In this document: piece by piece, positions 4,121 through 63,333 of the stretch | Layout of the letters: every line of letters begins with the position of its first letter | How positions within the stretch are numbered: position 1 is the stretch's first letter | Origin: Lachnospiraceae bacterium | GTDB taxonomy: Bacteria; Bacillota; Clostridia; Lachnospirales; Lachnospiraceae | Assembly (NCBI GenBank): GCA_017449075.1 | Contig: JAFSKG010000044.1 | Coordinates: 4,339-68,338, forward strand | DNA length: 64,000 nucleotides | Reading direction: 5' to 3' | Translations under genes and position numbers: made by a program | The notes under the pieces: generated by a model | What the model was told of the DNA's origin: nothing | The model's database searches: none | Seen by the model: the letters and a program-made list of their open reading frames with translations, nothing else

Positions 4121-5057
4121 TTTTTAACCTCCTTAAATCATCGCCATACAAATACTCATTATCATAAGCATTTACCAATCTTGAATATGTTGAACTCAGA
4201 TAATTACTTTCTATCTGATCTGGCATAAGGTTAGTAGTAATTATTGTCGACTTCTTATCATTTAATCTTTTATCAATTATGTAATTAATTTCTGTATTCG
4301 TATAATCAGTAATTCTCTCAGTACCCAAGTCATCAAGTATAAATAAATCACATGCAACTGCGTAATACTTTAGTGGCTCGCCTTCATAATCTGGCTTTAG
4401 AGAATTAAGATATTCATTTACATTGACATATAACACTGACTTATTTTTCTTTAAGGCCTCAGCACCCATACATCTTGCGAGAAATGTTTTTCCAGTTCCA
4501 GTAGGTCCTATAAGCAAAAGGCTAAAAGGACTTTTACTCATTCCTTCAACTTCACTTTTAAACTTTTTGATTAGAGTTTCCATAAGTTGTTTATATGTAG
4601 TCCCGTTATACTCTAATCCACTTTGGTTATAAAAACTCATGTCAAGGTTGTCGAAATTATCATCTTTTATATAATTCTTAAAATGAGAAATATTGTCAAA
4701 TAATTCTATCTCTTTTTGCACAAAACAAGAGCACTTATGACCATCCACATATCCAGTATCCTTGCACTTATCGCATACATACTTGAGTTCCTTATAATCG
4801 TCAATAATATTGTGCTCTTTTAAATAAGTATTTCTTTCTAATTGTATATTTTCTAATTGTTTTTCAAGTTCATCAATTGGCTTATTTTCAATTCTTGCCA
4901 TTCCTATCTTGGTATAGAGCTTTATAATACTTAAGTCCAATTCTTTTAGCTTAGGGTTCTTTCCATAAATCTCATTTTTTTTATCTTCATACCTTAAGTA
5001 ATCACCCTGTCTAATATATTCATATTCTCTTTTTATGTCTTCATAACTCTTTATCAA
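4107..5057 (-). CDS. DnaC/DnaI-like helicase-loader AAA+ ATPase with an N-terminal Cys-rich zinc motif
   Basis: Walker A is GPTGTGKTF and Walker B is LFILDDLG. Zinc motif is CDKCKDTGYVDGHKCSC. TTG start with SD AGGGGA. Confidence 0.7.
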   Translation of the reverse strand: MIKSYEDIKREYEYIRQGDYLRYEDKKNEIYGKNPKLKELDLSIIKLYTKIGMARIENKPIDELEKQLENIQLERNTYLKEHNIIDDYKELKYVCDKCKDTGYVDGHKCSCFVQKEIELFDNISHFKNYIKDDNFDNLDMSFYNQSGLEYNGTTYKQLMETLIKKFKSEVEGMSKSPFSLLLIGPTGTGKTFLARCMGAEALKKNKSVLYVNVNEYLNSLKPDYEGEPLKYYAVACDLFILDDLGTERITDYTNTEINYIIDKRLNDKKSTIITTNLMPDQIESNYLSSTYSRLVNAYDNEYLYGDDLRRLKNVNI

Positions 5058-10682: not shown

Positions 10683-12005
10683 TTACTTTTTGTTAATATT
10701 GTCTGTTATAAAACTAGGTAACAAGTCCTTTGAATCATTTGCTTTTTTATTAAAACCAATCTTACTGAGATCAACATTTAAACTATCAAGACTAACAGAA
10801 TCACTTGCAGGTCCAACTGTATCTTTAACTTCTTGGCTTTGTTTTTTCTTTGGGCTAAAGAAAAAACTACTTGGTGATTCTTCATGTGGCGCAGTTTGTG
10901 GTCTAATTGGTTCTTGACTATAAGAAGGTACTGTTGGACTTACATATTGAGTATTATAGTTATAGTTCTGCATAGGTCTATATGTTGGATACGAATTTAC
11001 AGTATCTCTAATACCAGTAGCGATCAAAGTTACAGTAACTGCGTCTTTCAAATTTGCATCTTCCCTTGCGCCAAAAATTATATTTGCATCTGTACTTATC
11101 TTTGGTTCCATCTCTCTCATTGCTGCATCTACATCTATAAGAGATACTTCACCACATATACTTACTATAAGGTCTGTTGCGCCTTCTATAGTTGTATCAA
11201 GAAGTGGTGACTCCATTGCCTTCTTAATTGCTTGACTTACTCTATTCTCACCCTGACCTTCTCCTACAGAAATATGTGCAAGACCTTTGCCTCTCATTAC
11301 AGTAGCAACATCTGCAAAATCAAGATTTACAAGTGCAGGTAAGTTTATAAGATCAGTGATTCCTCTTATACTTTGTTTCAATATCTCATCTGCTTTTGCA
11401 AATGCTTCTTTAAATCCATCTTTCACATCTACAATATTCAAAAGTTTATCATTTGCGATGCTGATAAGTGTATCAACATTTGGATATAATTTATTTATTC
11501 CAGCAAGTGCTCTTTGCATACGAACCTTACCTTCAAATCTAAAAGGTTTAGTTACTACAGCAACTGTGAGTATTCCTTCTTCCTTAGCAATGCTTGCAAC
11601 TATAGGAGCAGCTCCAGTTCCTGTACCACCACCCATTCCACAAGTGATGAAAACCATATCTGCTTTTTTCTGTGTCTCTGTCTCACGAAGTATTGCTCTA
11701 ATTGCTTCTTTAGATTCATTTGCAGCACTCTCACCAATTTCAGGTATAGCACCACATCCTCTGCCACCAGTAATTTTTTCTCCAATAGTAACTCTCTTTG
11801 AAGCACGGCAGTGTCTCAAATCTTGTATATCAGTGTTAACTCCAACAAATTCCACACCTTTAACACCATCATCAATCATACGATTAACTGCATTATTTCC
11901 TGCTCCACCAATACCTAAAACTACAATCCTAGCTACTGGATCATAGATATTTTCTTGTATTGGTACTACAGGTCTATTATTAGGGTATGTTTCAAATGTA
12001 TTCAT
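10683..12005 (-). CDS. ftsZ: Cell division protein FtsZ
   Basis: Tubulin signature GGGTGTGAAP and N-terminal motif VLGIGGAGNNAVNRM. A long Q/P/S/Y-rich linker leads to a C-terminal peptide DLLPSFI. Confidence 0.95.
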   Translation of the reverse strand: MNTFETYPNNRPVVPIQENIYDPVARIVVLGIGGAGNNAVNRMIDDGVKGVEFVGVNTDIQDLRHCRASKRVTIGEKITGGRGCGAIPEIGESAANESKEAIRAILRETETQKKADMVFITCGMGGGTGTGAAPIVASIAKEEGILTVAVVTKPFRFEGKVRMQRALAGINKLYPNVDTLISIANDKLLNIVDVKDGFKEAFAKADEILKQSIRGITDLINLPALVNLDFADVATVMRGKGLAHISVGEGQGENRVSQAIKKAMESPLLDTTIEGATDLIVSICGEVSLIDVDAAMREMEPKISTDANIIFGAREDANLKDAVTVTLIATGIRDTVNSYPTYRPMQNYNYNTQYVSPTVPSYSQEPIRPQTAPHEESPSSFFFSPKKKQSQEVKDTVGPASDSVSLDSLNVDLSKIGFNKKANDSKDLLPSFITDNINKK

Positions 12006-30393: not shown

Positions 30394-33300
30394 TTATTGA
30401 TTTAAATTTATCCATTTACCATCGGCACCTACAAAATATCCATCAGGAGTCATAGTATTTATATACATTTCTCCATCTATTCCAAAGTAATACCAATCGC
30501 CTAAGATTTGTTTCCAACCAGTTGCCATCGTGCCTTCTCTTACCGTCATAGAATTATCAAAGAAATATATTTTACTATCTATAGTATGTATCCATCCCTT
30601 ATACATATTTCCAGCTGCATCAAAATAGTATGTACTTCTAGCAACATTTCCTGTTATTGGATTATTTGCACCTTCAACAATTCTCTGTATTACATAAAAA
30701 CCATCCAGAGCTGTAGTTTTACCCCAGACGCCTGTACCTTCTAATTGCCACTTGTCATTTCTTGGATTGTAATTCCAAGTACATGTGTCCGCATTCAAGA
30801 AATCTTTTACTGATTTTATAGTAAGCAAATTGATTGTAGTCAGTGGCTGATTGATGAGTGGACCGGTTCCACTGCCTCCTCCACTACTTCCTCCACTACC
30901 AGATGGATTATATGGTCCAGGAGTTGGTCTTGGTGGGGTTGGTGGCGTTGGTGGAACTGGTTCTGGCGGTACTGGTTTTGGTTTAGGAGTTCCATAAATA
31001 AAGTATCCTGGTAAACTTTCAGCATCCAATCTAGCGTATGTACTATCATATACATGACTTGGATCAATCTCAGATATACTTGCAAGGGTTGTCCCATACT
31101 GTCCTGTTAGACTATTACATCCACTAAACATAGAACTGTCACTTGTAACTGATGTAGTTACAAATGCATCAGTTGTATATATGCGCTTAAGATTAGTACA
31201 ATTAGCAAACATATTTCTCATGTTTGATGCACTTGCAGTATTAAACCATGTTAGTATAACTTCCTCTAATCCACTACAGCCATTAAACATATAACTTAAG
31301 TCAGTAGCATTAGTTGTATCTACTTTAGCCACATTTACTGTAGCAAGTCTTACACAACCATCAAACATATGTGACATATTATTAGTTGATATAGTAGATA
31401 CATTTTCAAAATTAGTAATTGTTTCAAGATTTGTAAATCCACTAAATAAACCAGAAGCATCTTTTGCAGTACATATGTCTATATCTTTAGGTGCACTTAT
31501 ATATGCCTTATTGCCTACTCTATAACCCTTTAATCCTCTTGAATTAGGAATATCCCACTCTGCATCAACAGTTAAAGGTGTAGCATCACCATATTTAAGT
31601 ATTTTAATTTCTTCAATATTAGATTTTGCATATGTATCTTGATACCAGTTGCCATCAAGTAAATAAGATTTATAAGTAAAATATCCTGGTCTTTCACTTC
31701 TTGGACCCCAATCTATATAAGCATAATTTACTCCCTTTGCATTACTTGGGTCTTCTAATATTTTATCAGCATACCTTGTTCCATTTCCACCTACTAAGCT
31801 AGTACAGTCATTAAACATATCATTGTTATATTGAATATTTGATACACCAAAATCTTTTGACATATAAATAGTTTTAAGTTTATAGCATCTATTAAACATC
31901 AAATGCAAAATAGATACCTTTGTACTTTTAAGCATAGAAAAATCTATTTCTTCTATTTCTTGGCAATCTTGGAACATTTCATAACCTTGCCATAAATTTT
32001 CAAAACTAAAACTTTCAGGGAATAATATTTTTTTAGTTTTTCTTCTATCTTCAAACATGCAGTATGCATTAACAAGAGAATTGCTCCATTTAGTTTTGCT
32101 TAAGTCAATAGCATCATTTGTCACATCATCAATTCGAGGACAAAACATATAATCTGCATATCTTACTGAAGAAAAATCAGCTCCATCAAAATTCCACCCT
32201 CTTAAATCATCACAGCAAAACATACGCTCAGCATTTCTTAACCTATGCCAGTTAAATCTTCCGATATTAACAGGACCTCCTTTCCAATGCTCAAACATCC
32301 ATCTAGCCAATAAAGTTAGTCTTGTATCAAGATATTCAAGCCCATTAAACTCAACAAGTTTCGGTGCTTGAATTCCAAACAGATGGTCGCAACTTTGACG
32401 CGTATATATAGGTCTACGCTTTTTTGCATATATAACTAGCTCGGTGTTGTTAATTCGATATGTGACAAGACCGTTCATATCTTCTCTCACACCCACCTTA
32501 TCATAAGTTGTAGGTATATCATTTTCATCATAAGTCAATGTAATTTTTGTAATTTCTCTACAATCAAGATTTACAAATGCTGCCCAATTTTTTATGTCAC
32601 CAGAATATGCATAATTGTAATTGGCTAAATAACCATGATTAACTCCTTCAACCTCAGTAACAATTACATATGCATCCTCTATTACTGCCATAGACTTATC
32701 AGTTTTTGTAGGATCGAAACCAGTAATATCATCTCTATTAATATTTCTACCAAATATACTTACACAGTTACCAAACATATTAGTAGACTCTATTACATTA
32801 GTTACATCAAATGAATCAGATGCTTTTATAGTTCTAAGTGTAGAACAATTATTAAACATATAACTCATGTCTGAAACTGATGCTGTTTCAAAGTACCTAA
32901 CATCAAGCTCTTTAATTTTATTTGCATCTTCAAACATATGTGACATATTTGTTGCTTTAGATGTATCTAATAAATCCAAGTTTACTATTTCTACAAGTGA
33001 AGTAAATTTTCTTTCAGGTGTAGTTCCACTAAATAAGTAAGATGAGTCCTCAGGTATATAGATAGGCACATCTCTTGTTGTATGCACGTCAATTATCTTA
33101 TCACTTCCATTAAGATAATAATAAACTTTAAGACCACCACTATTTGGAAGCTTTGTTACATTTATAGGATTTGAAGAAATTGACATATCAGGAGTTGAGA
33201 AAATTATCTTTTTAACTTCTGAAGGGTTGACACCTATTCCATCATACCAATTAACATCAAGGAAATATTTATCTTCTGTAAAATATCCCGGTGTTCCATC

Positions 33301-36300
33301 TTTATCAATTCGTGCATAACTACCGTCTCTATGTGAACCTGTATAACTTGTACCATTTCCGCCTTTAAGATTAGTTGCATTATTAAACATATTGTTACTT
33401 GCGGCAGTGCCACTTACTTCAAAATGTTTTGTAGCATATATAGTAGTAAATGTCACATTTTCAAACATTGATGAAAAATCAGTAACTGCAGAGGTTTTGA
33501 AACTACCTACAGATAATTCATTTCCACCTGTATATATGCCTTTAAACATGCCGTTCATATTAGTTACTTTACTCGTATCAAAATTATCAATATTAAATAT
33601 AAAGTCACTTATACGAGATTCACTAAACATATAACTCATGTCTGTTACATTTGATGTATTAATTGTCTCAAGTCCTGATAAATCAATATAATTAGTGCCT
33701 GCTAGACCACTTCCAATTTTACTAAACATATAACTCATGTCAGTAATCTTTGAAGTGTCAAAAGATCTAATATCAAGTGCAGCTAAACTTCTCATACCAT
33801 AGAATAACATATCCAATTTTTCGACTTTGTCTATATTAAGACTTGACACATCAAGATTTGTCATTGACTTTGCACCAGCAAACATTCCTGAAATTGAAGT
33901 TACTTTACTTGTATCAAGTAAATGAATATTTTCTACATTGGTTAAATTAGTCATACCACCAGAGAAACTTATACTCTTAACATAAGCATCAGAATCACTG
34001 AATAAGGCTGTACTATCTTTATATGCATATATTGTTTTATTTATGACTTTATATATTTCCACAGTATCATCAAGTCTGCAAGCTCTTAATCCAAACGAAT
34101 TTGGAAGTACTGTATCATAGTCACAAATACTCATAGTAGCTTCTCCATATGGTACAAACTTTATAGAACCTATACCAGAAGCAGGATAATTATCTGTATC
34201 ATTTAAATATTTATACCATCCTGGTCTTAAAATATAATTACCATCTGATAAAAGTCCCATTTTATTTATATCATCATTTCCTCTATCAATTCGTGCATAC
34301 TTTGAAGTATTACTTTCTGCTTCAGATGAGCTTGCTGCTATAGCTTCTTTAGTTGTTCCTTCTTCACCTATAAGACTCGTACAAGCAGTAAATACTTCAA
34401 CGCTTGTACTATCTATTAATTTCCAAGTATCTGATACATACACTTTTTCAAGTGCTTCACAATATGCAAATAAACCTTTATAACTAGTTATATTCTTTGT
34501 ATCATATGTTGATAAATCTAATCTTTCAATTTCTTTACAGCCATAGAATAGATACTCCATCGCAGTTCCAGTGAGTGATGAAATATCAAAATTTATAGCA
34601 TCAATAGTGTCTATATTATATGCATTTGCAAATAGAGCTTTTATATTTGTTACATTTGAATTAACAAAATTTTCACTATGGGTTATGCTTCTAAAACCTA
34701 CATTATTAAACATTCCCATCATATTTGTAGCACTACTTGTATCAAAATTAGTTATGTCTAAATCAACACTTTCATTATGTCCTTGAAGTTCAGCTGTTAT
34801 AGGTGTAGGATTAACTGTGTCAGTAATTGCGATAGGACCACTTCCAAACATATTTGAAAAATCAGATACTCTACTCGTCTCAAATGTTTCAAAAGAAATA
34901 TTAGGTTTAAACTCTACATATTTAAATGCAGAAGCAAAATTTAAAACCTTACTTGTATCAAACATATCTATGTTTTCAAACTCAACACCACCTACATTCC
35001 ACCCAAAACCTTTTTTGTAGCTAGAATTATAGAAGTTTGCAAATAAATTTTGGGAATTTTGAGATGCATAAATAGTCCTTGCTTCAGGAGCATATATTGT
35101 AACTATATTACCATCCCTAAGTCCTATAAGACCATTACTACCATCTATTTGCCACCAATCATCATGTAATGTATGAGTAGGATCTACAGCACTTGCTGAA
35201 GCAAATACAATTTTACTTATATTCTCAGGAGAATATGCTGCCCCTTCTGTACCACATTGATTATACCAATTAGATTTAAGTCTATAATTTTTATCTGATA
35301 AATATCCATGGTGCCCTTCAAAATTTTCTTCTATGATTGCAATAGTCTTGTCTTTTGGATTTGAATTATTGTAACGAGAATAAGTTCCTGTACCCTCTAT
35401 GTCATCAATATCTCTTCCAATAAGACTTGCACAACCATCAAACATATTTTCGCTACTTGTGACATTTGATAGGTCAAAGTTATCATTTACATATATGGCT
35501 GTAAGACCATAGCATCCACTAAACATGTAACTAGTGTTTGTCAAATTATGTGTGTCAAAACCTGTCAAATCAATATTATTTAATCTATATGCACCACTAA
35601 ACATGTAACTCATATTAGTTACATTACTTGTATCTATGCCACTAAAACTTAAGTATCTAAAACCTGCATTACTAAACAAATGACTCATATCTGTTACTTT
35701 ACTTGTATTAAGGCCCCTTATATCAAGTTCTGTAATATTATATCCTCCACCTGGGAATACACCACTAAACATATAACTCATATCTGTTACATTTCTTGTA
35801 TCAAGTCCTCTTAAATCAATACTTATAGAACCAGATGTACCATTAAATGCTCCACAGAACATATGACTCATGTTAGTTACATTTGAGAAATTAGCACCGG
35901 TGAAAGTGAGATTTGTAAGTGATGATGCTCCATTAAACATGTAACTCATATTAGTGACATTTCTTATATCAATATCATTCATATTAAAGCTAGTAAGAGA
36001 TGAAGCTCCATCAAACATATGGGATGTATCAAGTAATCTACTTGAATCTAAAACATTTAACCCTGTTACACTTGTAAGAGAAGAATACCCGCTAAATACA
36101 TACGCTGCACTTGTTCCAAGTGTCATAGCTTTATCATCATTTGGTCTAAATATGGTTATTGCAGTTCCATTAACACTGCCTTTAAGACCATTTGAATAAG
36201 GTATATCGTAAAGATTGCTAGCCCCCGGATTATAATCATATATAGTCACACTTGTAATTTGATTTTGATTAAGTCCTGATCCAATGTGCCATCCCTTAGT

Positions 36301-39300
36301 TAATCTATAAACTGGTCTTGAGAAATATCCTAGTTCAGAAGGACCATTAAATTTATCTTTTTTAGCATAACGCTTACCTTGTTCACCACGTGCAGTATAT
36401 GTTGTTCCTTGATCACCAGAAAGGTTAGGGCAATTAGAAAATACTATAGGATCATCATAACCACCTTGAGCCATATTAAAATTATAATCACAATATATAG
36501 TTGTAAGTCTTGGAAGATTATTAAACATACGCTCTATATTTGAATTATAAGCATAGAAATTAGTAATGTCTATAACTTCAAGGTTATCTAAACCATCAAA
36601 CATTTTATAAGCATTCTTAATAGTTAAATAATCATTTCCATCTTTAAAAGTTGATAAATCAATGTAGGTTATGGTATCCATATCAGTAAACATACCTTCA
36701 AAAGAAGGAGCTTGTGATACTACAAATCTACTTAAATCTATGTTTTCTAAGTTCGTCATAGATTTAAACATATAAGACATGTCCATAACCTTACTTGTAT
36801 CAAACATGCTTAAATCGATTTCCGCAAGTGCTGATACGCCATCAAACATATGTGACATATTAGTTACATTTGAAGTATTGAGATTCTTTAAGTTTAAGCT
36901 AGTTAAACTACTAGTATTAGCAAACATATATGACATGTTAGATACAGCACTAGTATTGAATGCACTTAAATCGAGATTGCTTAATGCACTAGTTCCATAG
37001 AACATGTATGACATGGTAGATACACGAGTAGTATCAAACTTACTCAAATTTACACTTGTAAGTTGACTAGCATTGTAAAATAAACCTGTCATATTAGTTG
37101 TTCGTTTTGTAAGCACTATATCCAATGAACCAAACTCAGTAAGTGAAGTAGCATCTTTAAATACATTAGTAGCATCATTTGTTAAGTATATTGATCTTCT
37201 ATTATTTCTAGCATAGACTATGAGTTCTGTTCCATTTATATATCCTTCTAATCCATTTCCATCTTTTATAAAATATGTATTGTCATAAGAACTAGGTGCA
37301 TTTCCACCTTTTATAAAAGTTATTTTAGTTACATTTGATCTATCAATTATTACACTATCATTTATATCTTTATTCCAATCTTTACCTACATTATAATTAG
37401 CATCCGTAAGATATCCATGCTTATCTTCATAGTTTTCTTCTAACTTTGCGCAAGTTATATCTTTTGGATTTGATTCACTGTAGCGAGAATAAGTGCCAGC
37501 TCCTTCATTGCCACTTGAATCTTTTCCCACAAGACTTGTACATCCCTCAAACATATTTTCGCAACGATTTCCTACTTCGTCTAAAGTGAAAATATCAGAT
37601 GCCTTTATAGTAGTAAGACTACTACAATTAGCAAACATATATCTTGTATTTCTTAAAGTTTCAGTAAAGAAATTTGATAAATCTATCTCTCTTAAATTAC
37701 TTGCACCATCAAACATATGATCTGCATCGTCTACTACAATAGCATTTAATGAAGTAAGATTCACAATTTTTTCTAAACTTGTAAACTGAAGCGCTGGATC
37801 AGGATTACTAAATAGATATCTGATATTTGTAGGTAGGTATAGTTCTAGATTATTACTTCTATGTATATAGACTTTAGTACCTACTCGATAGCCTACAAGC
37901 CCAAAACTTTTTGGCAACTCCCAAGTATAATCATAAGTTGTAGGTGCAGGAGCTCCTTGGTTTAAGAATTCTATTTCTGTAATATTTCGAACATCATAAT
38001 TACTTTGCGCTGGCTCATACCAACCTGGTCTAAAGAGTAGTCTATATTCAGTATAAAATCCAGGTCTTCCATTACGCCCATCTATACAAGCACTCCAAAA
38101 GTTAGTTTGACTTCCCCATGTAAGTCTTGTTCCTTGTCCGCCAATTATACTATGACAATTATTAAACATATCCCAACTACTCTGTGCAATAGCATCAAAT
38201 GTTTTATTCTTTATATAAATACTACTTAGATTAATACAATCTTCATACATAGAAGTAGTATAATATATATGATAATATAAATTTCCTAAGTCTAACTCTT
38301 TAAGTTGCCTACAATTTTTAAAAGCATAAGAACTAAGCCAAACCCAACCTGTGTTCCAAGAACCCGTACCATTTATTTCTTTTAAGTTTGTGCATCCTTC
38401 AAACATACCATATAAGCTTGTTATGTGGTCTGTAACAAATTTTGACACATCAATAGTTTCAAGACTTCTTAAACTTGCAAAAGCATATTTGAAAGTGGCA
38501 GCATGGCTTGTATCTAGATAAGTTAAGTTTTCAAAACTTGTAAGATTATAAAAATCTGCAAAGTATCCTTCTTCATTTCCGCCATTTAAACAAATAGGTT
38601 TATCCCTATCAGGATGGAAAGTAATAGTCTCGCCGTCATAGTATAAGGCAAGTCCATACGAATCTGGCAAAATATATCTTGTACCAGATGGTATAGGATC
38701 ATCATACCTATCAAATCTAATTGTTATAACATCATCTTTGTTGCCACCTGGAATAACATTAAACCAGTCGCCCTTTATTCTATAATTGTTATCAGTAAAA
38801 TATCCTTTGTTGTTATATTTTCTCTCAAGTGAACCACCATAGTCTATATCAAAAGCTATCTTACAAAAAGCTCTCTCTTTATCTATCTTGGTCGAGTCAT
38901 ATATAAATTCATCAAAACCACCATTCATCTCTTTTGATCTTAGTTTTAAACAATCATTAAACATGTTTTGAGAATCTGTTACATTATTTACATTGAAAAT
39001 GTCTGATGCATATATGTAAAGCAAGTCACTACATCCATTAAACATATATGATGTATTAGTTACATTTCTTGTGTCAAAATTTACTGCATTAATTTCAAGA
39101 ATTGAACTTGCACCATCAAACATATGTGACATATTAGTTGTCTCATTGGTATAAACTACATCAAGATTATTTATAGCTGCAAGACTTGTAAATTTATCAT
39201 CACCAGCATCACTAAAGAGATAAGATGCATCATCTGGCAAATATATATCTTTATCATCCGCCGCCCATATATAGATATTAGTTCCATTTTTAAAACCTTT

Positions 39301-40329
39301 AAGACCATTACTACTTTCTAAATCCCAAGTATGATCATAACTAGAAGGTGACGCAACTCCATATGGAAGAATATCTATATTAGTAATACTATTTTTATTA
39401 ATACTTGCACCATTTAACCAATTTGGATTTAATATATATTTACCTCCTGCTCCCAATAAAGTATTGCTGCTACTTGTAAGCTCTTCAACTAGTTTTAATG
39501 TATTTGATTGGGTAGATTCATCTACTTCTAAAGTTTCACTTGCAGTAGATAATTTTTCTTCTACAACAAATTTAACAAATTCTGAATCAGTTGCTATTAA
39601 ATTATGATTATTATTTGAAACTTCACTATCAGTAGATAGTTTAGTATTTACTTCGCCATTTTCATTTACATCGCTATCTGTTGCAATATCATTATTTAAT
39701 TTTTCTTCATCAGTTTCATTTTGATCTTCGCTTGGAGCAATGTCAGAAGTAGTCGCTGCGGGCTCGCGGTGCTTCGCCCCTACAGAGTTGCTCTCACATA
39801 CAGAGTCATCTGAATCTTCATTTGTGCTCGTAGAAGTATCATCTACACTTTCACTCGCACCTGTAGAATCAATTGTTCCATCTTCAATGCTAACACTTAT
39901 AGAATCACTCTCTTCTTCTTTACTTATATCGCTACTTTCATTTTTATCACTTTCTAAAATTTCTTCACTATTATCCCTACTATCTATACTATCAATACTT
40001 TCACTATTTTCTACAGTTGATTCTTCTGAATCATTACTATCATTTTCATCATTATCAGAACTTTCGATAGTTGTATCTCCTTCTGGTTCTTCTTCAATAG
40101 GGATTGCAAGCTTCGCCCCTGCAAAGTCGCTTTCCCCTTCGCCATCACCTTCAATCTTTTCTTTTAATAAATCTCCTTCATAATAGTTATGATTATTATT
40201 TCCATTAGCAGTACTTGCACCACTCACCACATCATCTACCGATGAAGCAAAAGTCATCATTCCAGCATTTGAAAACACCATTGAAATGACTAAAAATATT
40301 GCTATTTTTCTTTTTAAAACATTCACCAT
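30394..40329 (-). CDS. Giant (~3312 aa) surface protein: signal peptide, acidic low-complexity region, ~10-11 modules of DUF285/BspA-type leucine-rich repeats, Pro-rich linker, C-terminal cell-wall-binding repeats
   Basis: A 9.9-kb uninterrupted ORF in AT-rich DNA. The start is set at MVNVLKRKIAIFLVISMVFSNAGMMTFASS (ATG 40329, SD GGAGG). Roughly 55-60 units of the type NVTNMSYMFxGCSSL. Modules end in (G)YFT/YLS...NW. The linker is PKPKPVPPEPVPPTPPTPPRPTPGP. The C-terminus is GWKQILGDWYYFGIDGEMY...DGYFVGADGKWI. Confidence 0.85.
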   Translation of the reverse strand: MVNVLKRKIAIFLVISMVFSNAGMMTFASSVDDVVSGASTANGNNNHNYYEGDLLKEKIEGDGEGESDFAGAKLAIPIEEEPEGDTTIESSDNDENDSNDSEESTVENSESIDSIDSRDNSEEILESDKNESSDISKEEESDSISVSIEDGTIDSTGASESVDDTSTSTNEDSDDSVCESNSVGAKHREPAATTSDIAPSEDQNETDEEKLNNDIATDSDVNENGEVNTKLSTDSEVSNNNHNLIATDSEFVKFVVEEKLSTASETLEVDESTQSNTLKLVEELTSSSNTLLGAGGKYILNPNWLNGASINKNSITNIDILPYGVASPSSYDHTWDLESSNGLKGFKNGTNIYIWAADDKDIYLPDDASYLFSDAGDDKFTSLAAINNLDVVYTNETTNMSHMFDGASSILEINAVNFDTRNVTNTSYMFNGCSDLLYIYASDIFNVNNVTDSQNMFNDCLKLRSKEMNGGFDEFIYDSTKIDKERAFCKIAFDIDYGGSLERKYNNKGYFTDNNYRIKGDWFNVIPGGNKDDVITIRFDRYDDPIPSGTRYILPDSYGLALYYDGETITFHPDRDKPICLNGGNEEGYFADFYNLTSFENLTYLDTSHAATFKYAFASLRSLETIDVSKFVTDHITSLYGMFEGCTNLKEINGTGSWNTGWVWLSSYAFKNCRQLKELDLGNLYYHIYYTTSMYEDCINLSSIYIKNKTFDAIAQSSWDMFNNCHSIIGGQGTRLTWGSQTNFWSACIDGRNGRPGFYTEYRLLFRPGWYEPAQSNYDVRNITEIEFLNQGAPAPTTYDYTWELPKSFGLVGYRVGTKVYIHRSNNLELYLPTNIRYLFSNPDPALQFTSLEKIVNLTSLNAIVVDDADHMFDGASNLREIDLSNFFTETLRNTRYMFANCSSLTTIKASDIFTLDEVGNRCENMFEGCTSLVGKDSSGNEGAGTYSRYSESNPKDITCAKLEENYEDKHGYLTDANYNVGKDWNKDINDSVIIDRSNVTKITFIKGGNAPSSYDNTYFIKDGNGLEGYINGTELIVYARNNRRSIYLTNDATNVFKDATSLTEFGSLDIVLTKRTTNMTGLFYNASQLTSVNLSKFDTTRVSTMSYMFYGTSALSNLDLSAFNTSAVSNMSYMFANTSSLTSLNLKNLNTSNVTNMSHMFDGVSALAEIDLSMFDTSKVMDMSYMFKSMTNLENIDLSRFVVSQAPSFEGMFTDMDTITYIDLSTFKDGNDYLTIKNAYKMFDGLDNLEVIDITNFYAYNSNIERMFNNLPRLTTIYCDYNFNMAQGGYDDPIVFSNCPNLSGDQGTTYTARGEQGKRYAKKDKFNGPSELGYFSRPVYRLTKGWHIGSGLNQNQITSVTIYDYNPGASNLYDIPYSNGLKGSVNGTAITIFRPNDDKAMTLGTSAAYVFSGYSSLTSVTGLNVLDSSRLLDTSHMFDGASSLTSFNMNDIDIRNVTNMSYMFNGASSLTNLTFTGANFSNVTNMSHMFCGAFNGTSGSISIDLRGLDTRNVTDMSYMFSGVFPGGGYNITELDIRGLNTSKVTDMSHLFSNAGFRYLSFSGIDTSNVTNMSYMFSGAYRLNNIDLTGFDTHNLTNTSYMFSGCYGLTAIYVNDNFDLSNVTSSENMFDGCASLIGRDIDDIEGTGTYSRYNNSNPKDKTIAIIEENFEGHHGYLSDKNYRLKSNWYNQCGTEGAAYSPENISKIVFASASAVDPTHTLHDDWWQIDGSNGLIGLRDGNIVTIYAPEARTIYASQNSQNLFANFYNSSYKKGFGWNVGGVEFENIDMFDTSKVLNFASAFKYVEFKPNISFETFETSRVSDFSNMFGSGPIAITDTVNPTPITAELQGHNESVDLDITNFDTSSATNMMGMFNNVGFRSITHSENFVNSNVTNIKALFANAYNIDTIDAINFDISSLTGTAMEYLFYGCKEIERLDLSTYDTKNITSYKGLFAYCEALEKVYVSDTWKLIDSTSVEVFTACTSLIGEEGTTKEAIAASSSEAESNTSKYARIDRGNDDINKMGLLSDGNYILRPGWYKYLNDTDNYPASGIGSIKFVPYGEATMSICDYDTVLPNSFGLRACRLDDTVEIYKVINKTIYAYKDSTALFSDSDAYVKSISFSGGMTNLTNVENIHLLDTSKVTSISGMFAGAKSMTNLDVSSLNIDKVEKLDMLFYGMRSLAALDIRSFDTSKITDMSYMFSKIGSGLAGTNYIDLSGLETINTSNVTDMSYMFSESRISDFIFNIDNFDTSKVTNMNGMFKGIYTGGNELSVGSFKTSAVTDFSSMFENVTFTTIYATKHFEVSGTAASNNMFNNATNLKGGNGTSYTGSHRDGSYARIDKDGTPGYFTEDKYFLDVNWYDGIGVNPSEVKKIIFSTPDMSISSNPINVTKLPNSGGLKVYYYLNGSDKIIDVHTTRDVPIYIPEDSSYLFSGTTPERKFTSLVEIVNLDLLDTSKATNMSHMFEDANKIKELDVRYFETASVSDMSYMFNNCSTLRTIKASDSFDVTNVIESTNMFGNCVSIFGRNINRDDITGFDPTKTDKSMAVIEDAYVIVTEVEGVNHGYLANYNYAYSGDIKNWAAFVNLDCREITKITLTYDENDIPTTYDKVGVREDMNGLVTYRINNTELVIYAKKRRPIYTRQSCDHLFGIQAPKLVEFNGLEYLDTRLTLLARWMFEHWKGGPVNIGRFNWHRLRNAERMFCCDDLRGWNFDGADFSSVRYADYMFCPRIDDVTNDAIDLSKTKWSNSLVNAYCMFEDRRKTKKILFPESFSFENLWQGYEMFQDCQEIEEIDFSMLKSTKVSILHLMFNRCYKLKTIYMSKDFGVSNIQYNNDMFNDCTSLVGGNGTRYADKILEDPSNAKGVNYAYIDWGPRSERPGYFTYKSYLLDGNWYQDTYAKSNIEEIKILKYGDATPLTVDAEWDIPNSRGLKGYRVGNKAYISAPKDIDICTAKDASGLFSGFTNLETITNFENVSTISTNNMSHMFDGCVRLATVNVAKVDTTNATDLSYMFNGCSGLEEVILTWFNTASASNMRNMFANCTNLKRIYTTDAFVTTSVTSDSSMFSGCNSLTGQYGTTLASISEIDPSHVYDSTYARLDAESLPGYFIYGTPKPKPVPPEPVPPTPPTPPRPTPGPYNPSGSGGSSGGGSGTGPLINQPLTTINLLTIKSVKDFLNADTCTWNYNPRNDKWQLEGTGVWGKTTALDGFYVIQRIVEGANNPITGNVARSTYYFDAAGNMYKGWIHTIDSKIYFFDNSMTVREGTMATGWKQILGDWYYFGIDGEMYINTMTPDGYFVGADGKWINLNQ
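39758..39783 (-). repeat. GC-rich repeat copy inside the giant CDS
   Basis: The minus strand reads GTAGGGGCGAAGCACCGCGAGCCCGC, which translates as VGAKHREPA. Confidence 0.6.
40100..40143 (-). repeat. GC-rich repeat copy inside the giant CDS
   Basis: The minus strand reads GGCGAAGGGGAAAGCGACTTTGCAGGGGCGAAGCTTGCAATCCC, which translates as GEGESDFAGAKLAIP. Confidence 0.55.
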
Positions 40330-40537
40330 ATGAACCTCCAGAAAAACAAAATGGCTAGCAAGGCTGTCCTTTAATACTACTATCATATATCCTGTTTGCA
40401 AACAAAAAGTGCTACTTGCATATAAATTGTATAATAAATTACTATTTTTTTCAATAAAATTAACTAATTTAAGCCATTTATATAGAAAAAAACATTTAAT
40501 AATGTTATAATTATTTAAATTGTAACTAGGAGTAATT

Positions 40538-41092
40538 ATGGGAAAGTTTAATGTTATAGAAACAGGGATCAAAGATTTAAAGGTCATAAAATTTGACCCA
40601 TTCTTAGATGCCCGCGGATATTTTTACGAATCTTATAACAAAAATGATTTTATCAAAATGGGTATAACTGAAGAGTTTGTGCAGGACAACCAATCTATGA
40701 GTAGTAAGGGCGTACTTCGAGGACTTCATTTTCAGATAAACTACCCTCAATCTAAACTTGTCCGCTGTCTTAAAGGCAAAGTTTTCGATGTGGCAGTTGA
40801 TATAAGAAAAGATTCTCCTACTTATGGTAAGCACTATGGCGTAGAACTCACAGAGGACAATAATACAATGTTTTATGTGCCAAAAAATTTCGCTCATGGA
40901 TTTTTAGTTTTGTCAGACACTGCTATCTTCTCTTATAAAGTTACAGATTTTTATCATCCAAATGATGAAGGCGGCATAATGTATAACGACCCGGATTTAA
41001 ATATTAAGTGGCCAATACCTGATGATCCGAATTTTAAAATCTTGTTATCTGATAAGGATACAAAGCATCCACTATTTAAAGATTTAAAATAG
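40538..41092 (+). CDS. rfbC: dTDP-4-dehydrorhamnose 3,5-epimerase
   Basis: 184 aa with RmlC cupin motifs (FxDxRGxFxE, LRGLHFQ, VFDVAVDIRKDSPTYG, FAHGF). SD is AGGAG. Confidence 0.9.
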   Translation: MGKFNVIETGIKDLKVIKFDPFLDARGYFYESYNKNDFIKMGITEEFVQDNQSMSSKGVLRGLHFQINYPQSKLVRCLKGKVFDVAVDIRKDSPTYGKHYGVELTEDNNTMFYVPKNFAHGFLVLSDTAIFSYKVTDFYHPNDEGGIMYNDPDLNIKWPIPDDPNFKILLSDKDTKHPLFKDLK

Positions 41093-42069: not shown

Positions 42070-42097
42070 GTGGGGCTCTGCAAGAATTCGCCCCTAC
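42070..42097 (-). repeat. GC-rich repeat copy that fills most of the 41-nt spacer
   Basis: The minus strand reads GTAGGGGCGAATTCTTGCAGAGCCCCAC. It is a GGGGC/GCCCC hairpin lying directly after the stop of the upstream gene. Confidence 0.6.
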
Positions 42098-46130: not shown

Positions 46131-46823
46131 CTATGAGAGCCCATTGTTTAGTTCGATTATATCTCCTGTATTATACAACTTGCTTGTGATAATATTATGT
46201 ATTTTTTCTGCAGTTTCATCGCAGTCCCACATTCTTCCGCTGTCTAATGTTTTAATAAAATCTTTCATCTCATCATCACTCAAATGCTTATTCATATCTG
46301 TGTCAACTGCACCTAATGCAATTGCTATTACATCGACATTAGAATCTTTAAATTCTTTTGCGAGTGATTTTGTAAATGCATTTATTCCGCCTTTAGTCAT
46401 AGAATAGACTGACTCCATGGCAGAACCAAGTATTCCCCACATCGACGAGATATTGACAATGATTCCTTGCTTATTTTTTATCATTTGCTTACTTACTAAT
46501 TTTGTAGTAAGAAATGTGTAATCAAGATTTGAATAAACTATCTCTTTATATTTTTCATAACTTACATCTTGAATTAAATTGTAGTCACACTTGCCAGCGT
46601 TATTTATGAGTATGTAAATATCGCTTGGTATGTCGCTCTCTTTTATTTCGCCTTTTATAGTTATAACTTTTCTTTTAAATTTATTTTCTATATCTGATTT
46701 AATTTCGTTCAACAAATCTATGTTTTTTTCACAAGTTAAAAGCAAATCATAATTGTGTTCTGCAAATTTATAGGCGAGAGCTTTCCCAATGCCTCGGCTC
46801 GCGCCAGTAATTACTATATACAT
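46131..46823 (-). CDS. SDR-family oxidoreductase
   Basis: TGASRGIG cofactor motif, NNAG, and the YSMTK (YxxxK) active site. Confidence 0.8.
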   Translation of the reverse strand: MYIVITGASRGIGKALAYKFAEHNYDLLLTCEKNIDLLNEIKSDIENKFKRKVITIKGEIKESDIPSDIYILINNAGKCDYNLIQDVSYEKYKEIVYSNLDYTFLTTKLVSKQMIKNKQGIIVNISSMWGILGSAMESVYSMTKGGINAFTKSLAKEFKDSNVDVIAIALGAVDTDMNKHLSDDEMKDFIKTLDSGRMWDCDETAEKIHNIITSKLYNTGDIIELNNGLS

Positions 46824-46830
46824 GATTCCT

Positions 46831-46924
46831 CCGGGCTCGCAATGCTCGCCCCTACAAATTCAGTTATACAATCATTTGTTGGTCATATACCTCACTTAAG
46901 AAAACAATTGGAGCAGTGAGGTAT
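46831..46924 (-). repeat. Composite repeat: GC-rich core plus a hairpin whose loop matches part of the 48850-49035 palindrome
   Basis: The minus strand reads GTAGGGGCGAGCATTGCGAGCCCGG (46831-46855). The hairpin pairs ATACCTCAC (46887-46895) with GTGAGGTAT (46916-46924). The loop segment TAAGAAAACAATTGGAGCA (46897-46915) matches TAAGAAAATAGTTGGAGCA (48863-48881) at 17 of 19 positions. Confidence 0.6.
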
Positions 46925-61908: not shown

Positions 61909-63333
61909 CTAAAAACTCTCATGCAACTTTCGTTTAATAAATTTTCCGGTATTTTCAACTATATTCTTATCTTCGTCTACAACCTGTCTTCCTCTAAGAA
62001 AGACTTTTTCTATCTTTCCCTTAAGTTTCTTTCCTTCAAATGCGCAGTAGTCTGATTTAGACACTTGACTCTTTATGCTTAAAACAGTCGTCTTTTTTGG
62101 GTCTATTATAACAAAATCTGCATCATAACCTTCTTTTATAAATCCTTTTCTGTCCCAAAGTCCAAATAGTCTTGCTGTATTTTCAGAGAGCAGCTCACAC
62201 ATTCTTTCTATTTTTAGTTTCTTGTTTTGACATGCATCAAAAAGTAAAATGCCTCTTTGTTCCACTCCATTTAAGCCACCTGGTATTTTCCTAAAATCAT
62301 CTTTGCCGAGTGCTTTTTGCTCTTTAGTAAATGAGCAGTGATCAGTAGAAACTATATCTATACTTCCATCATTGATTGCTTTCCATAGAGCTTTAATATC
62401 TTTCTTCTTTCTAATTGGTGGTGCACATACATACTTACTCGCTTCATCAAATTTTTTCTTATAGACACTATCATCAAAGTATAAATACTGAGGACATGTT
62501 TCCCCATAAACTTTATATCCCTTTTCTTTAGCTATCTTAACTTCGTTAAGTGCTTCTTCACAAGTAACATGAACTGCCAAAAATGCTGCGCTAGTTATAT
62601 GCGACATATAGGCAAGTCTATTTACACAATCAGCTTCTGCCACAGCTGGTCGAGTTAAAGCATGCGAAATAACTTTTTTATTATCATCGCCAACTACATT
62701 AGCTCGAAGTTCTTTTATTATTCCATCATTTTCACAGTGAACTCCTGTTATGCCTTTACACTTTGCAATTTCTGTAAGTGCATCAAGTAATTTATCATCA
62801 TCAAGTTTAATGTCATAAGTAGTATATAATTTAAATGAAGTTACACCCTCTTTTATCATTTCCTTAATTTCAGAACGAACTTTATCATTCATTTCTGATA
62901 TAGACATGTGAACTCCGAAATCACAACTCACACCATCTTTTGCTTTGTCAAGCCAATTTTTAAGTCCTTGCTTTAAAGTCTCTCCGTGATACTGCGTTCC
63001 ATAATCTATTATAGTTGTTGTGCCGCCAGATACCGCTGCCTTAGTTCCACTTGCAAAATCATCAATAGTAGTAGTGCCTGCAACTGACAAATCAAAGTGA
63101 GTATGTCCATCTATGAAGCCTGGGAAAATATATTTACCTTTGCAGTCAATAACTTGTACGCTTGAGTTCTGCGATCCCTTTGGCGAAGCCAATCGTAGGG
63201 GCGAGCTTTGCGAGCCCGGCACTTTTATATTCTTTGCAACTCTCTTTATCTTCTCGCCTTCAATTAAAATGTCAGCAACAAAAGACTTTTTGCTATTAAC
63301 TACTATTCCGTTTTTTAACAATATTTTTTTCAT
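61909..63333 (-). CDS. D-hydantoinase/dihydropyrimidinase-family amidohydrolase carrying a 20-codon GC-rich insertion
   Basis: Motifs PGFIDGHTHF, carboxylated-Lys region TSFKLY, and STDHC. The insertion PGSQSSPLRLASPKGSQNSS lies between the first beta-strands. Confidence 0.8.
   Translation of the reverse strand: MKKILLKNGIVVNSKKSFVADILIEGEKIKRVAKNIKVPGSQSSPLRLASPKGSQNSSVQVIDCKGKYIFPGFIDGHTHFDLSVAGTTTIDDFASGTKAAVSGGTTTIIDYGTQYHGETLKQGLKNWLDKAKDGVSCDFGVHMSISEMNDKVRSEIKEMIKEGVTSFKLYTTYDIKLDDDKLLDALTEIAKCKGITGVHCENDGIIKELRANVVGDDNKKVISHALTRPAVAEADCVNRLAYMSHITSAAFLAVHVTCEEALNEVKIAKEKGYKVYGETCPQYLYFDDSVYKKKFDEASKYVCAPPIRKKKDIKALWKAINDGSIDIVSTDHCSFTKEQKALGKDDFRKIPGGLNGVEQRGILLFDACQNKKLKIERMCELLSENTARLFGLWDRKGFIKEGYDADFVIIDPKKTTVLSIKSQVSKSDYCAFEGKKLKGKIEKVFLRGRQVVDEDKNIVENTGKFIKRKLHESF
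63160..63219 (+). repeat. GC-rich repeat inserted in-frame in the hydantoinase gene
   Basis: The plus strand reads ...TTGGCGAAGCCAATCGTAGGGGCGAGCTTTGCGAGCCCGG. It is exactly 60 nt (20 codons) and strongly GC-rich against an AT-rich flank. The core differs at only 1 position from the copy at 46831-46855. Confidence 0.7.

Follow-up and report, generated by a model that had tools for sequence, protein, structure and literature searches.

The 64,000-nt stretch of Lachnospiraceae bacterium DNA analyzed here (contig JAFSKG010000044.1 of assembly GCA_017449075.1, positions 4,339 to 68,338), hereafter the window, contains close to its right end a gene for a dihydropyrimidinase/D-hydantoinase of 474 aa (61909..63333, minus strand). 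Within this gene lies a 60-nt insertion of 20 codons (63160..63219, minus strand). The subject of this work is the insertion, the family of repetitive extragenic palindromic (REP) sequences to which its parts belong, and the state of the same site in orthologous genes.

The dihydropyrimidinase gene and its insert

The open reading frame (ORF) gives a full-length match to the dihydropyrimidinase model TIGR02033 (E 1e-149, 499 bits against a curated cut-off of 393), and solved D-hydantoinases from the Protein Data Bank (PDB) match the 474-aa protein at E ~1e-94. The metal-site motifs DGHTHF, FKLY, VHCEN, AVHVT, and STDHC align with those of the structure 1k1d, and in the PDB alignments the HxH, carbamylated Lys, His, His, and Asp metal ligands are all in place. 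In comparison with five orthologs, the ratio of nonsynonymous to synonymous substitutions (dN/dS) was 0.04–0.09 at a dS of 1.3–1.7. The identical protein was found on 17 contigs from ruminant samples, which represent at least four ENA assemblies. The surrounding genes form a conserved purine/pyrimidine catabolism cluster with xanthine dehydrogenase, xanthine/uracil permease, adenine deaminase, and other amidohydrolases. According to our analysis, the gene is under strong purifying selection and the enzyme is intact.

The coding (minus) strand of 63160–63219 reads CCGGGCTCGCAAAGCTCGCCCCTACGATTGGCTTCGCCAAAGGGATCGCAGAACTCAAGC and is translated as PGSQSSPLRLASPKGSQNSS. The initial annotation, made from the sequence alone, had described it as an in-frame repeat insertion carrying the core of a repeat family, exactly 60 nt long and GC-rich, at a position where known hydantoinases have only a short spacer. 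The position and the composition are borne out by our comparisons. In the alignments with 1k1d, 1yny, and 4kir, a single gap of 18 residues falls exactly at the inserted stretch, and the loop comprises 27 residues in the window protein versus 9–13 in orthologs of 54–74% identity, which likewise have no extra residues. The GC content is 61.7% in the 60 nt, versus 34.9% in the whole gene and ~33% in the window. The length of exactly 60 nt, however, is a matter of where the brackets are placed, because the net gain over empty-site orthologs is 54 nt (18 aa) and the repeat-derived stretch covers 64 nt (63156–63219). The tryptic peptides predicted across the insert are VPGSQSSPLR, LASPK, and GSQNSSVQVIDCK.

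By definition, a REP is a short, imperfect, GC-rich palindrome that has a GT[AG]G tetranucleotide at its foot (PMC3733652, PMC6006769), and the insert consists of one and a half tandem units of this kind plus a 16-nt linker with a small hairpin of its own. The intact unit (63195..63217, plus strand), delimited by consensus, edges, and covariation, is composed of GTAG (63195–63198) followed by GGGC-GA-GC, the loop TTT, and GC-GA-GCCC; its two mismatches to the 23-nt family consensus are both located in the loop. The GTAG strand is the plus strand and is consequently antisense to the gene. The degenerate unit (63156..63178, plus strand; GTACGCTTGAGTTCTGCGATCCC) retains 16 of 23 matches to the consensus, was recognized by comparison with a three-unit array of 39-nt period in locus L005, and overlaps at its end the Val-Gln codons of the hydantoinase. 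Between them lies the linker (63179..63194, plus strand) with the hairpin TTGGC-GAA-GCCAA, which the initial annotation had reported as perfect. It is indeed exact at 63180–63192, but it is not private to the insert: this recurrent module, TGGCGAAGCCA, accompanies 17 of 274 family copies, including those with spacings of 5–6 nt, and in 13 copies it is placed 3 nt 5' of GTAG. The 39-nt period of the array is accounted for by this module.

The AlphaFold2 model of the protein, based on an alignment of 53 sequences, has a mean predicted local distance difference test score (pLDDT) of 87 and a predicted TM-score (pTM) of 0.90. Residues 34–58 are modeled without secondary structure between the confident beta-strands 28–33 and 59–63, and the pLDDT is below 50 at residues 42–56. 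The model agrees with the earlier suggestion of a tolerated loop and supports the reading of the insert as a disordered surface loop. The insert plays no catalytic role in the enzyme.

The repeat family and associated RAYT-like genes

Along the consensus of 304 copies (GGGCTCGCAGTGCTCGCCCCTAC), conservation falls to the background level at both edges. Read on the opposite strand, the unit has 23 nt and comprises the GTAG head and an imperfect, GC-rich hairpin whose arms GGGC-GA-GC and GC-GA-GCCC enclose a loop of 3 nt; the single-stranded 23-mer is GTAGGGGCGAGCACTGCGAGCCC. Each position of the head is kept in 83–97% of 333 copies (G 314, T 320, A 324, and G 276), and the central tandem G.A/A.G mismatches are essentially invariant across the family. 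At stem pair 12–16, 285 copies have CG and 28 have TA; at pair 8–20, 266 have CG, 25 TG, and 15 TA. The CG-to-TA changes at both pairs are compensatory. Positions 2–40 of the insert match intergenic copies at 89–95% identity (BLAST).

Neighboring units within 150 nt are arranged as direct repeats in 98 cases and as inverted repeats in 8, with preferred spacings of 29–30 and 39–42 nt. A CRISPR array, considered in view of the 60–70-nt periods of some such arrays, was rejected as an explanation: the periods are mixed (29–30, 39–42, 59–61, and 70 nt), the supposed spacers recur, and the units show degeneration. No family reached its gathering score in an Rfam scan of the whole window, so that the repeat does not correspond to a curated RNA family. 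Composite units were also observed at 4562–4700 of locus L052, in which a second hairpin is apparently nested inside the REP, as in GTAGGGGG-AAAACAGTCCAGTGGACTGTTTTCC-ACTGCGAGCCC.

The GTDB species genomes contained at least 112 stretches with the exact pattern GGGCTCGCNNNGCTCGCCCCTA. Among the matches listed, almost all came from rumen Lachnospiraceae or Clostridiales metagenome-assembled genomes (MAGs) of ~33% GC, with RGIG6119, UBA3866, RUG816, RGIG9292, RGIG9190, UBA3633, SRR10912540_bin.12, and SRR12081300_bin.40 as sources. The 12-nt core occurs 310 times in ~900 kb of related MAG DNA, a sample biased by the fact that its loci had been fetched by the repeat pattern, versus once in shuffled sequence. 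ORFs of at least 150 aa make up 85% of this DNA, yet 72% of the cores are located outside them; since these ORFs hold only 28% of the cores, the family prefers intergenic space. The claim that the insert carries the core of a dispersed family is confirmed by these counts and by a second 23-nt core at 46833–46855 of the window, where shuffles predict 0 matches. The family populates a clade of ~33% GC rumen and gut Lachnospiraceae.

Genes that resemble those of REP-associated tyrosine transposases (RAYTs, or TnpA-REP) and encode HUH/Y1 proteins are flanked by the repeat in related genomes. Our screen for the HUH motif, conducted on all ORFs of at least 90 aa in the fetched loci, revealed three small proteins of 144–172 aa in loci L052, L114, and L062, each with the HUH motif NHLHI/M and the motif WQKxxYExxIRD. 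Their best NCBIfam match is NF047646, “REP-associated tyrosine transposase” (E 1e-16 to 5e-22), and PF01797 (Y1_Tnp) is matched at 27 bits versus a gathering score of 23. In L052 (UBA3866) and L124, one family unit lies directly upstream of the start codon of the RAYT-like gene, whereas in L114 (SRR12081300_bin.40) arrays of GTAG units upstream and inverted units downstream represent the full REPtron layout. Another GTAG repeat, GTAGGGGCGGAT..ATCCGCCC, borders the gene in L062 on either side. Of the 80 loci obtained in a metagenome scan for RAYT relatives, only three represent close relatives, and the relatives in L125 and L126 are flanked by subfamily variants. This may suggest that the repeat is mobilized by RAYTs, although cleavage and rejoining of the repeat have been shown for the E. 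coli TnpA-REP only (background in PMC6006769).

The RAYT-like gene of L052 (4560–5920) occurs within the same purine-catabolism neighborhood as the hydantoinase, in the order xanthine dehydrogenase, REP cluster, CAT-type acetyltransferase, REP unit, RAYT, zinc-ribbon protein, and HicA/HicB pair; locus L122, otherwise syntenic with L052, lacks both the REP cluster and the RAYT. A distant RAYT-like protein on a metagenome contig of 59% GC (L143, 2501–3019) contains the peptide GDGRQ[IV]AAI three times in-frame between its HUH and Tyr motifs, which is reminiscent of the in-frame REPs reported within tnpA-REP genes (PMC6006769).

Orthologous sites and other in-frame copies

We aligned 52 hydantoinase homologs and placed them in a neighbor-joining (NJ) tree without support values. 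Whereas the loop has 9–13 residues at 54–74% identity, its length ranges from 9 to 46 residues at an identity of at least 80%, where this site is the only internal indel hot spot. The initial annotation had named a recent pseudogene as one alternative and suggested checking whether the insertion is missing from close relatives. The insertion is neither recent nor missing from them: nearly all orthologs of at least 80% identity carry a version at the same left junction, in the form of 0–3 tandem units or decayed remnants. The GTDB loci closest to the window species, L041 (SRR10912540_bin.12) and L008, are only ~82% identical in DNA.

Seven loci have the same left junction, orientation, and frame. 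In the window, the loop is made up of one unit, the linker, and the degenerate unit with 16 of 23 matches; L008 has one unit, L041 a decayed half unit, and L047 a damaged unit. Three units are found in L005 (period 39 nt) and in L006 (period 30 nt), and two, the second decayed, in L007 (period 30 nt). Since neighboring units across the whole family are direct repeats at 29–30 and 39–42 nt, the arrays inside the gene represent the frame-compatible subset of the usual arrays. We also considered the possibility that the unit inside the gene tracks the REP variant of its own species: the L007 unit, GCCCGTAC, resembles the L126-type flanks, yet the other L007 copies carry the standard CCCCTAC, and this idea was set aside. 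Right after the stop codon of the L006 hydantoinase gene, 2.5 tandem intergenic units with a 32-nt period are located (11448–11510).

Insertion into reading frames is not limited to this gene. The 86 cores located inside ORFs of at least 150 aa (~28% of the 310) lie in open frames in 85 cases, and the single core in a stop-creating frame carries a mismatch; the unit itself is open in five of its six frames. The GTAG strand is the coding one in 67 of the 86, mostly in the frames V-G-A-S (41) and R-G-E (25), while the other 19 have the opposite orientation and include 13 copies in the S-P-L frame, as in the hydantoinase. Just past the right end of the window, in DNA of the same species (L001, 5795–5817), an antisense unit encodes VGASSASP in a 1000-aa Fer4_20/Pyr_redox_2 protein. 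This protein belongs to the same gene cluster as the hydantoinase; its counterpart in L008 has no insert, and those in L005, L007, and L122 vary in length at this place.

Four further copies were identified in the window, all on the minus strand. The copy at 46833..46855, of the same subfamily as the hydantoinase unit and with one mismatch to the consensus, is intergenic and abuts the ribosome-binding site of the ORF 46131..46823 (minus strand). Another intergenic copy (42072..42097) belongs to a second subfamily (GGGGCTCTGCAAGAATTCGCCCCTAC on the plus strand) and is near-identical to the inverted repeat that flanks the RAYT-like gene of L125; at least two REP subfamilies are thus represented in the window. 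The remaining two are segments in the acidic N-terminal region of a giant DUF285 protein: a degenerate in-frame REP at 40100..40122, encoding ..FAGAKLAIP.., and a copy at 39760..39783 with one extra base (GTAGGGGCGAAGCACCGCGAGCCC), which is in-frame with the GTAG strand coding and encodes ..SVGAKHREPAA... GTAG is on the minus strand at four of the five REP loci of the window, the hydantoinase copy being the exception.

The giant ORF (30394..40587, minus strand) has 3397 aa with 13 DUF285 repeats, leucine-rich-repeat-like segments, and C-terminal choline-binding repeats, and its product is probably located at the cell surface. The DNA repeats listed for the window are mainly internal repeats of this ORF. 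The plus-strand GC skew is negative nearly throughout positions 1–64000, and the ORFs examined at 39–47 kb and 60–64 kb are mostly on the minus strand.

Origin of the insert and its significance

Based on the results of our analysis, we consider it highly probable that the insert is a REP-type element of a RAYT-associated family, sitting in-frame as a passenger loop in a conserved dihydropyrimidinase.

Several observations weigh against this interpretation. The RAYT-like proteins score 61–78 bits with NF047646, under the curated cut-off of 80. The metagenomic RAYT relatives of 30–44% identity mostly have no flanking repeat, and therefore they add nothing to the association. Among ORFs of at least 90 aa, the HUH screen revealed no RAYT either in the window or in L001, which covers 21 kb of the same species. 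The folding energies predicted for the unit and for the whole insert, on either strand, are no better than those of shuffles (z -0.5 to -0.9), so that the structural support comes from covariation. In proteobacteria, mobility is attributed to inverted doublets, such as REP doublets forming hairpins (REPINs) or bacterial interspersed mosaic elements (BIMEs), and this layout is not the one found here, in view of the 98 direct versus 8 inverted neighbors. At the orthologous site, L123 appears empty (KALNADVID) inside the clade of at least 80% identity, and codons 36–60 of L204 and L205 form long AT-rich loops (SELQKNNSKKNKFDKTIISNE and SSKKKTLVSSKIDKD). The latter were considered as possible decayed REP arrays, yet no unit is recognizable in these loops, and the surrounding 7.4 kb contain no cores. 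Because the empty sites and the AT-rich loops are nested in the clade, a single ancestral insertion requires later precise losses and full decay.

The course of events that we propose is as follows. A REP copy would have entered the codons of a beta-turn in the N-terminal beta-sandwich domain, in the ancestor of the clade of orthologs with at least 80% identity. Frame-preserving versions could have persisted as a Gly/Ser/Pro-rich disordered loop, because the turn is exposed to solvent and five of the six frames of the unit are open. The array would then have grown, shrunk, and decayed in each lineage, probably because its direct repeats slipped or recombined unequally, with only lengths that are multiples of three being retained in the hydantoinase loop. 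The first unit may have been kept near the consensus by gene conversion with the genomic REP pool, by cutting and joining again by the transposase, or by selection on a DNA or RNA motif.

A different history, in which the turn is an insertion hot spot that units entered independently in several lineages, appears rather unlikely. It is suggested by the loop content, which differs by lineage (units of 39 nt or 30 nt, a composite element of 58 nt, or AT-rich loops), and by the empty-looking sites nested within the clade. The hydantoinase P0014 has the extra 63 nt of the indel between L121 and L122, in which a run of 58 nt is 100% identical to an intergenic composite repeat of UBA3866 (L052, 4562–4619) and looks like a recent acquisition or conversion. 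However, all seven REP-bearing loci examined share one left junction, orientation, and frame, the short forms GSQVQ, GSLCE, and GSQSLIVK resemble collapse products that keep the first codons of the unit, and the nesting is taken from the NJ tree, in which branches have no support values.

The conservation of the first unit raises another possibility. When the window gene is compared with those of L008, L006, L005, and L007, only 43–52% of the four-fold degenerate sites are identical, yet the first REP unit is identical at 20–22 of 23 positions, which exceeds the neutral level at P of 1e-4 to 1e-7. As the unit is conserved beyond neutral sites, homogenization, re-insertion, or selection on the motif is suggested. 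The repeat could then be retained because its DNA or RNA motif functions in place, as a site for RAYT or another protein, as a replication or transcription pause, or in mRNA stability. The near invariance of the GTAG head and of the tandem G.A mismatches across the family is in line with such a function, and REPs have been reported as protein-binding and RNA elements (PMC3733652, PMC6006769). Nevertheless, we regard this explanation as improbable: the number and spacing of units vary freely, some orthologs have no repeat while their gene is still intact, the mRNA strand offers only a weak hairpin (-3.3 to -3.5 kcal/mol), and the same conservation would follow, with no function in place, from gene conversion by the hundreds of copies in the genome. 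Also speculative, and in our opinion quite doubtful, is the assumption that the REP/RAYT system is actively maintained inside coding sequences, where the transposase or conversion with the genomic pool would preserve the units and drive their in-frame expansion and contraction, with the arrays serving as a generator of variation in loop length. If this were true, such a generator would act in conserved proteins, including housekeeping enzymes and the giant surface protein.

The loop might also be an adaptation at the protein level, for example, a flexible Ser/Pro-rich segment for regulation or interaction. It is kept in some form across most of the clade, and the motif GS(Q/H)(S/C)SP(L/V/I)R recurs. 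Yet the same nucleotides occur intergenically and, in both orientations, in several frames of other genes, and for this reason the peptide motif is a mere translation of the repeat. Furthermore, orthologs differ by 0 to 36 extra residues, and the AlphaFold2 model has no structure in the loop. Even the 96%-identical orthologs L121 and L122 are separated there by a clean indel of 63 nt (21 residues) bounded by GCTCGC(A/T)GTGC. A protein-level role thus appears very improbable. Finally, the other alternative named in the initial annotation, a recently disrupted but still-open pseudogene, and likewise an assembly artefact, can practically be dismissed, as nothing beyond the GC-rich block in an AT-rich gene speaks for them, whereas the low dN/dS, the metal-site motifs aligned with 1k1d, the identical protein on 17 contigs, and the conserved gene cluster all argue against them.

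As a passenger REP, the insert can be compared with several known systems. The family has much in common with the REPtrons built on GTAG repeats (Nunvar 2010, Di Nocera 2013, Quentin 2018): a 5' GTAG with a 19-nt GC-rich imperfect hairpin and conserved internal mismatches; hundreds of dispersed copies, mostly intergenic; single small HUH/Y1 genes that are bordered by copies and match the RAYT model best; a division into several subfamilies, each beside its own RAYT-like gene; and intragenic in-frame copies of ~20–30 aa (PMC3733652). It differs in its low-GC Bacillota (Lachnospiraceae) host, in the direct tandem neighbors (98 versus 8) instead of inverted doublets, in the share of cores inside long ORFs (~28%), and in RAYT-like proteins that fall just below the NCBIfam cut-off. 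Only Group 1 RAYTs have been noted in Clostridia, and that group has not been linked to abundant repeats (PMC5581495); Firmicutes and Clostridia are unmentioned in two REP surveys (PMC3733652, PMC2817692).

Coding variable-number tandem repeats of the contingency-locus style likewise change in copy number between close strains, by multiples of three and through indels bounded by direct repeats. Here, however, the unit belongs to a genome-wide family and is not private to one gene, on/off frameshifting is absent, and nothing indicates that the variation is put to use. Yeast mitochondrial DNA, which is also very AT-rich, contains GC clusters, short mobile palindromes of high GC content, one of which is known in-frame in var1. 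Like the copies of the present family, they stand out as GC islands, but they are organellar and eukaryotic, and their mobilization is unrelated, with no tyrosine transposase involved.

The Rickettsia palindromic elements (RPEs), of which RPE-1 has a size of ~100–150 bp, are known from Rickettsia; to our knowledge, they have no GTAG head and no sequence similarity to the Lachnospiraceae family. In both cases, small palindromes lie in-frame in conserved functional proteins, to which they add surface peptide segments, and copies at orthologous sites decay between species. The present unit is distinguished by its 23 nt (39 nt with the linker), its GTAG head, its occurrence in Lachnospiraceae, and its variable tandem number. 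With a 23-nt GTAG unit, the family does not belong to the RPEs and shares with them only the in-frame insertion behavior. RPEs are regarded as the classic in-frame case, and the shorter RPE-4 and RPE-6 have been equated with CGTC-tagged REPs (PMC3733652).

Intragenic GTAG-REPs encoding 20–30 aa have already been described in Opitutus, Thauera, and others (PMC3733652), and the insert therefore joins a known kind of event, for which we found no earlier report in this bacterial group. What is notable here is the low-GC Gram-positive host, the direct tandem arrays, the high coding fraction, and the conservation of the core above the neutral level.

Overall, the repeat accounts for GC-rich islands, both intergenic and intragenic, of an AT-rich genome and for length differences among near-identical orthologs in metagenome catalogs. 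Annotators should accordingly not take such inserts for frameshifts, pseudogenes, or chimeras, and the variable loop could be of use as a strain marker. The series of orthologs with an empty site, one, two, or three units, or remnants represents a natural experiment on the tolerance of insertions and the persistence of REPs, while the conservation of the core above the neutral level provides a handle on whether REPs are homogenized. With these findings, the range of GTAG-REP/RAYT systems, which have been studied almost wholly in Proteobacteria, is extended to rumen Lachnospiraceae.

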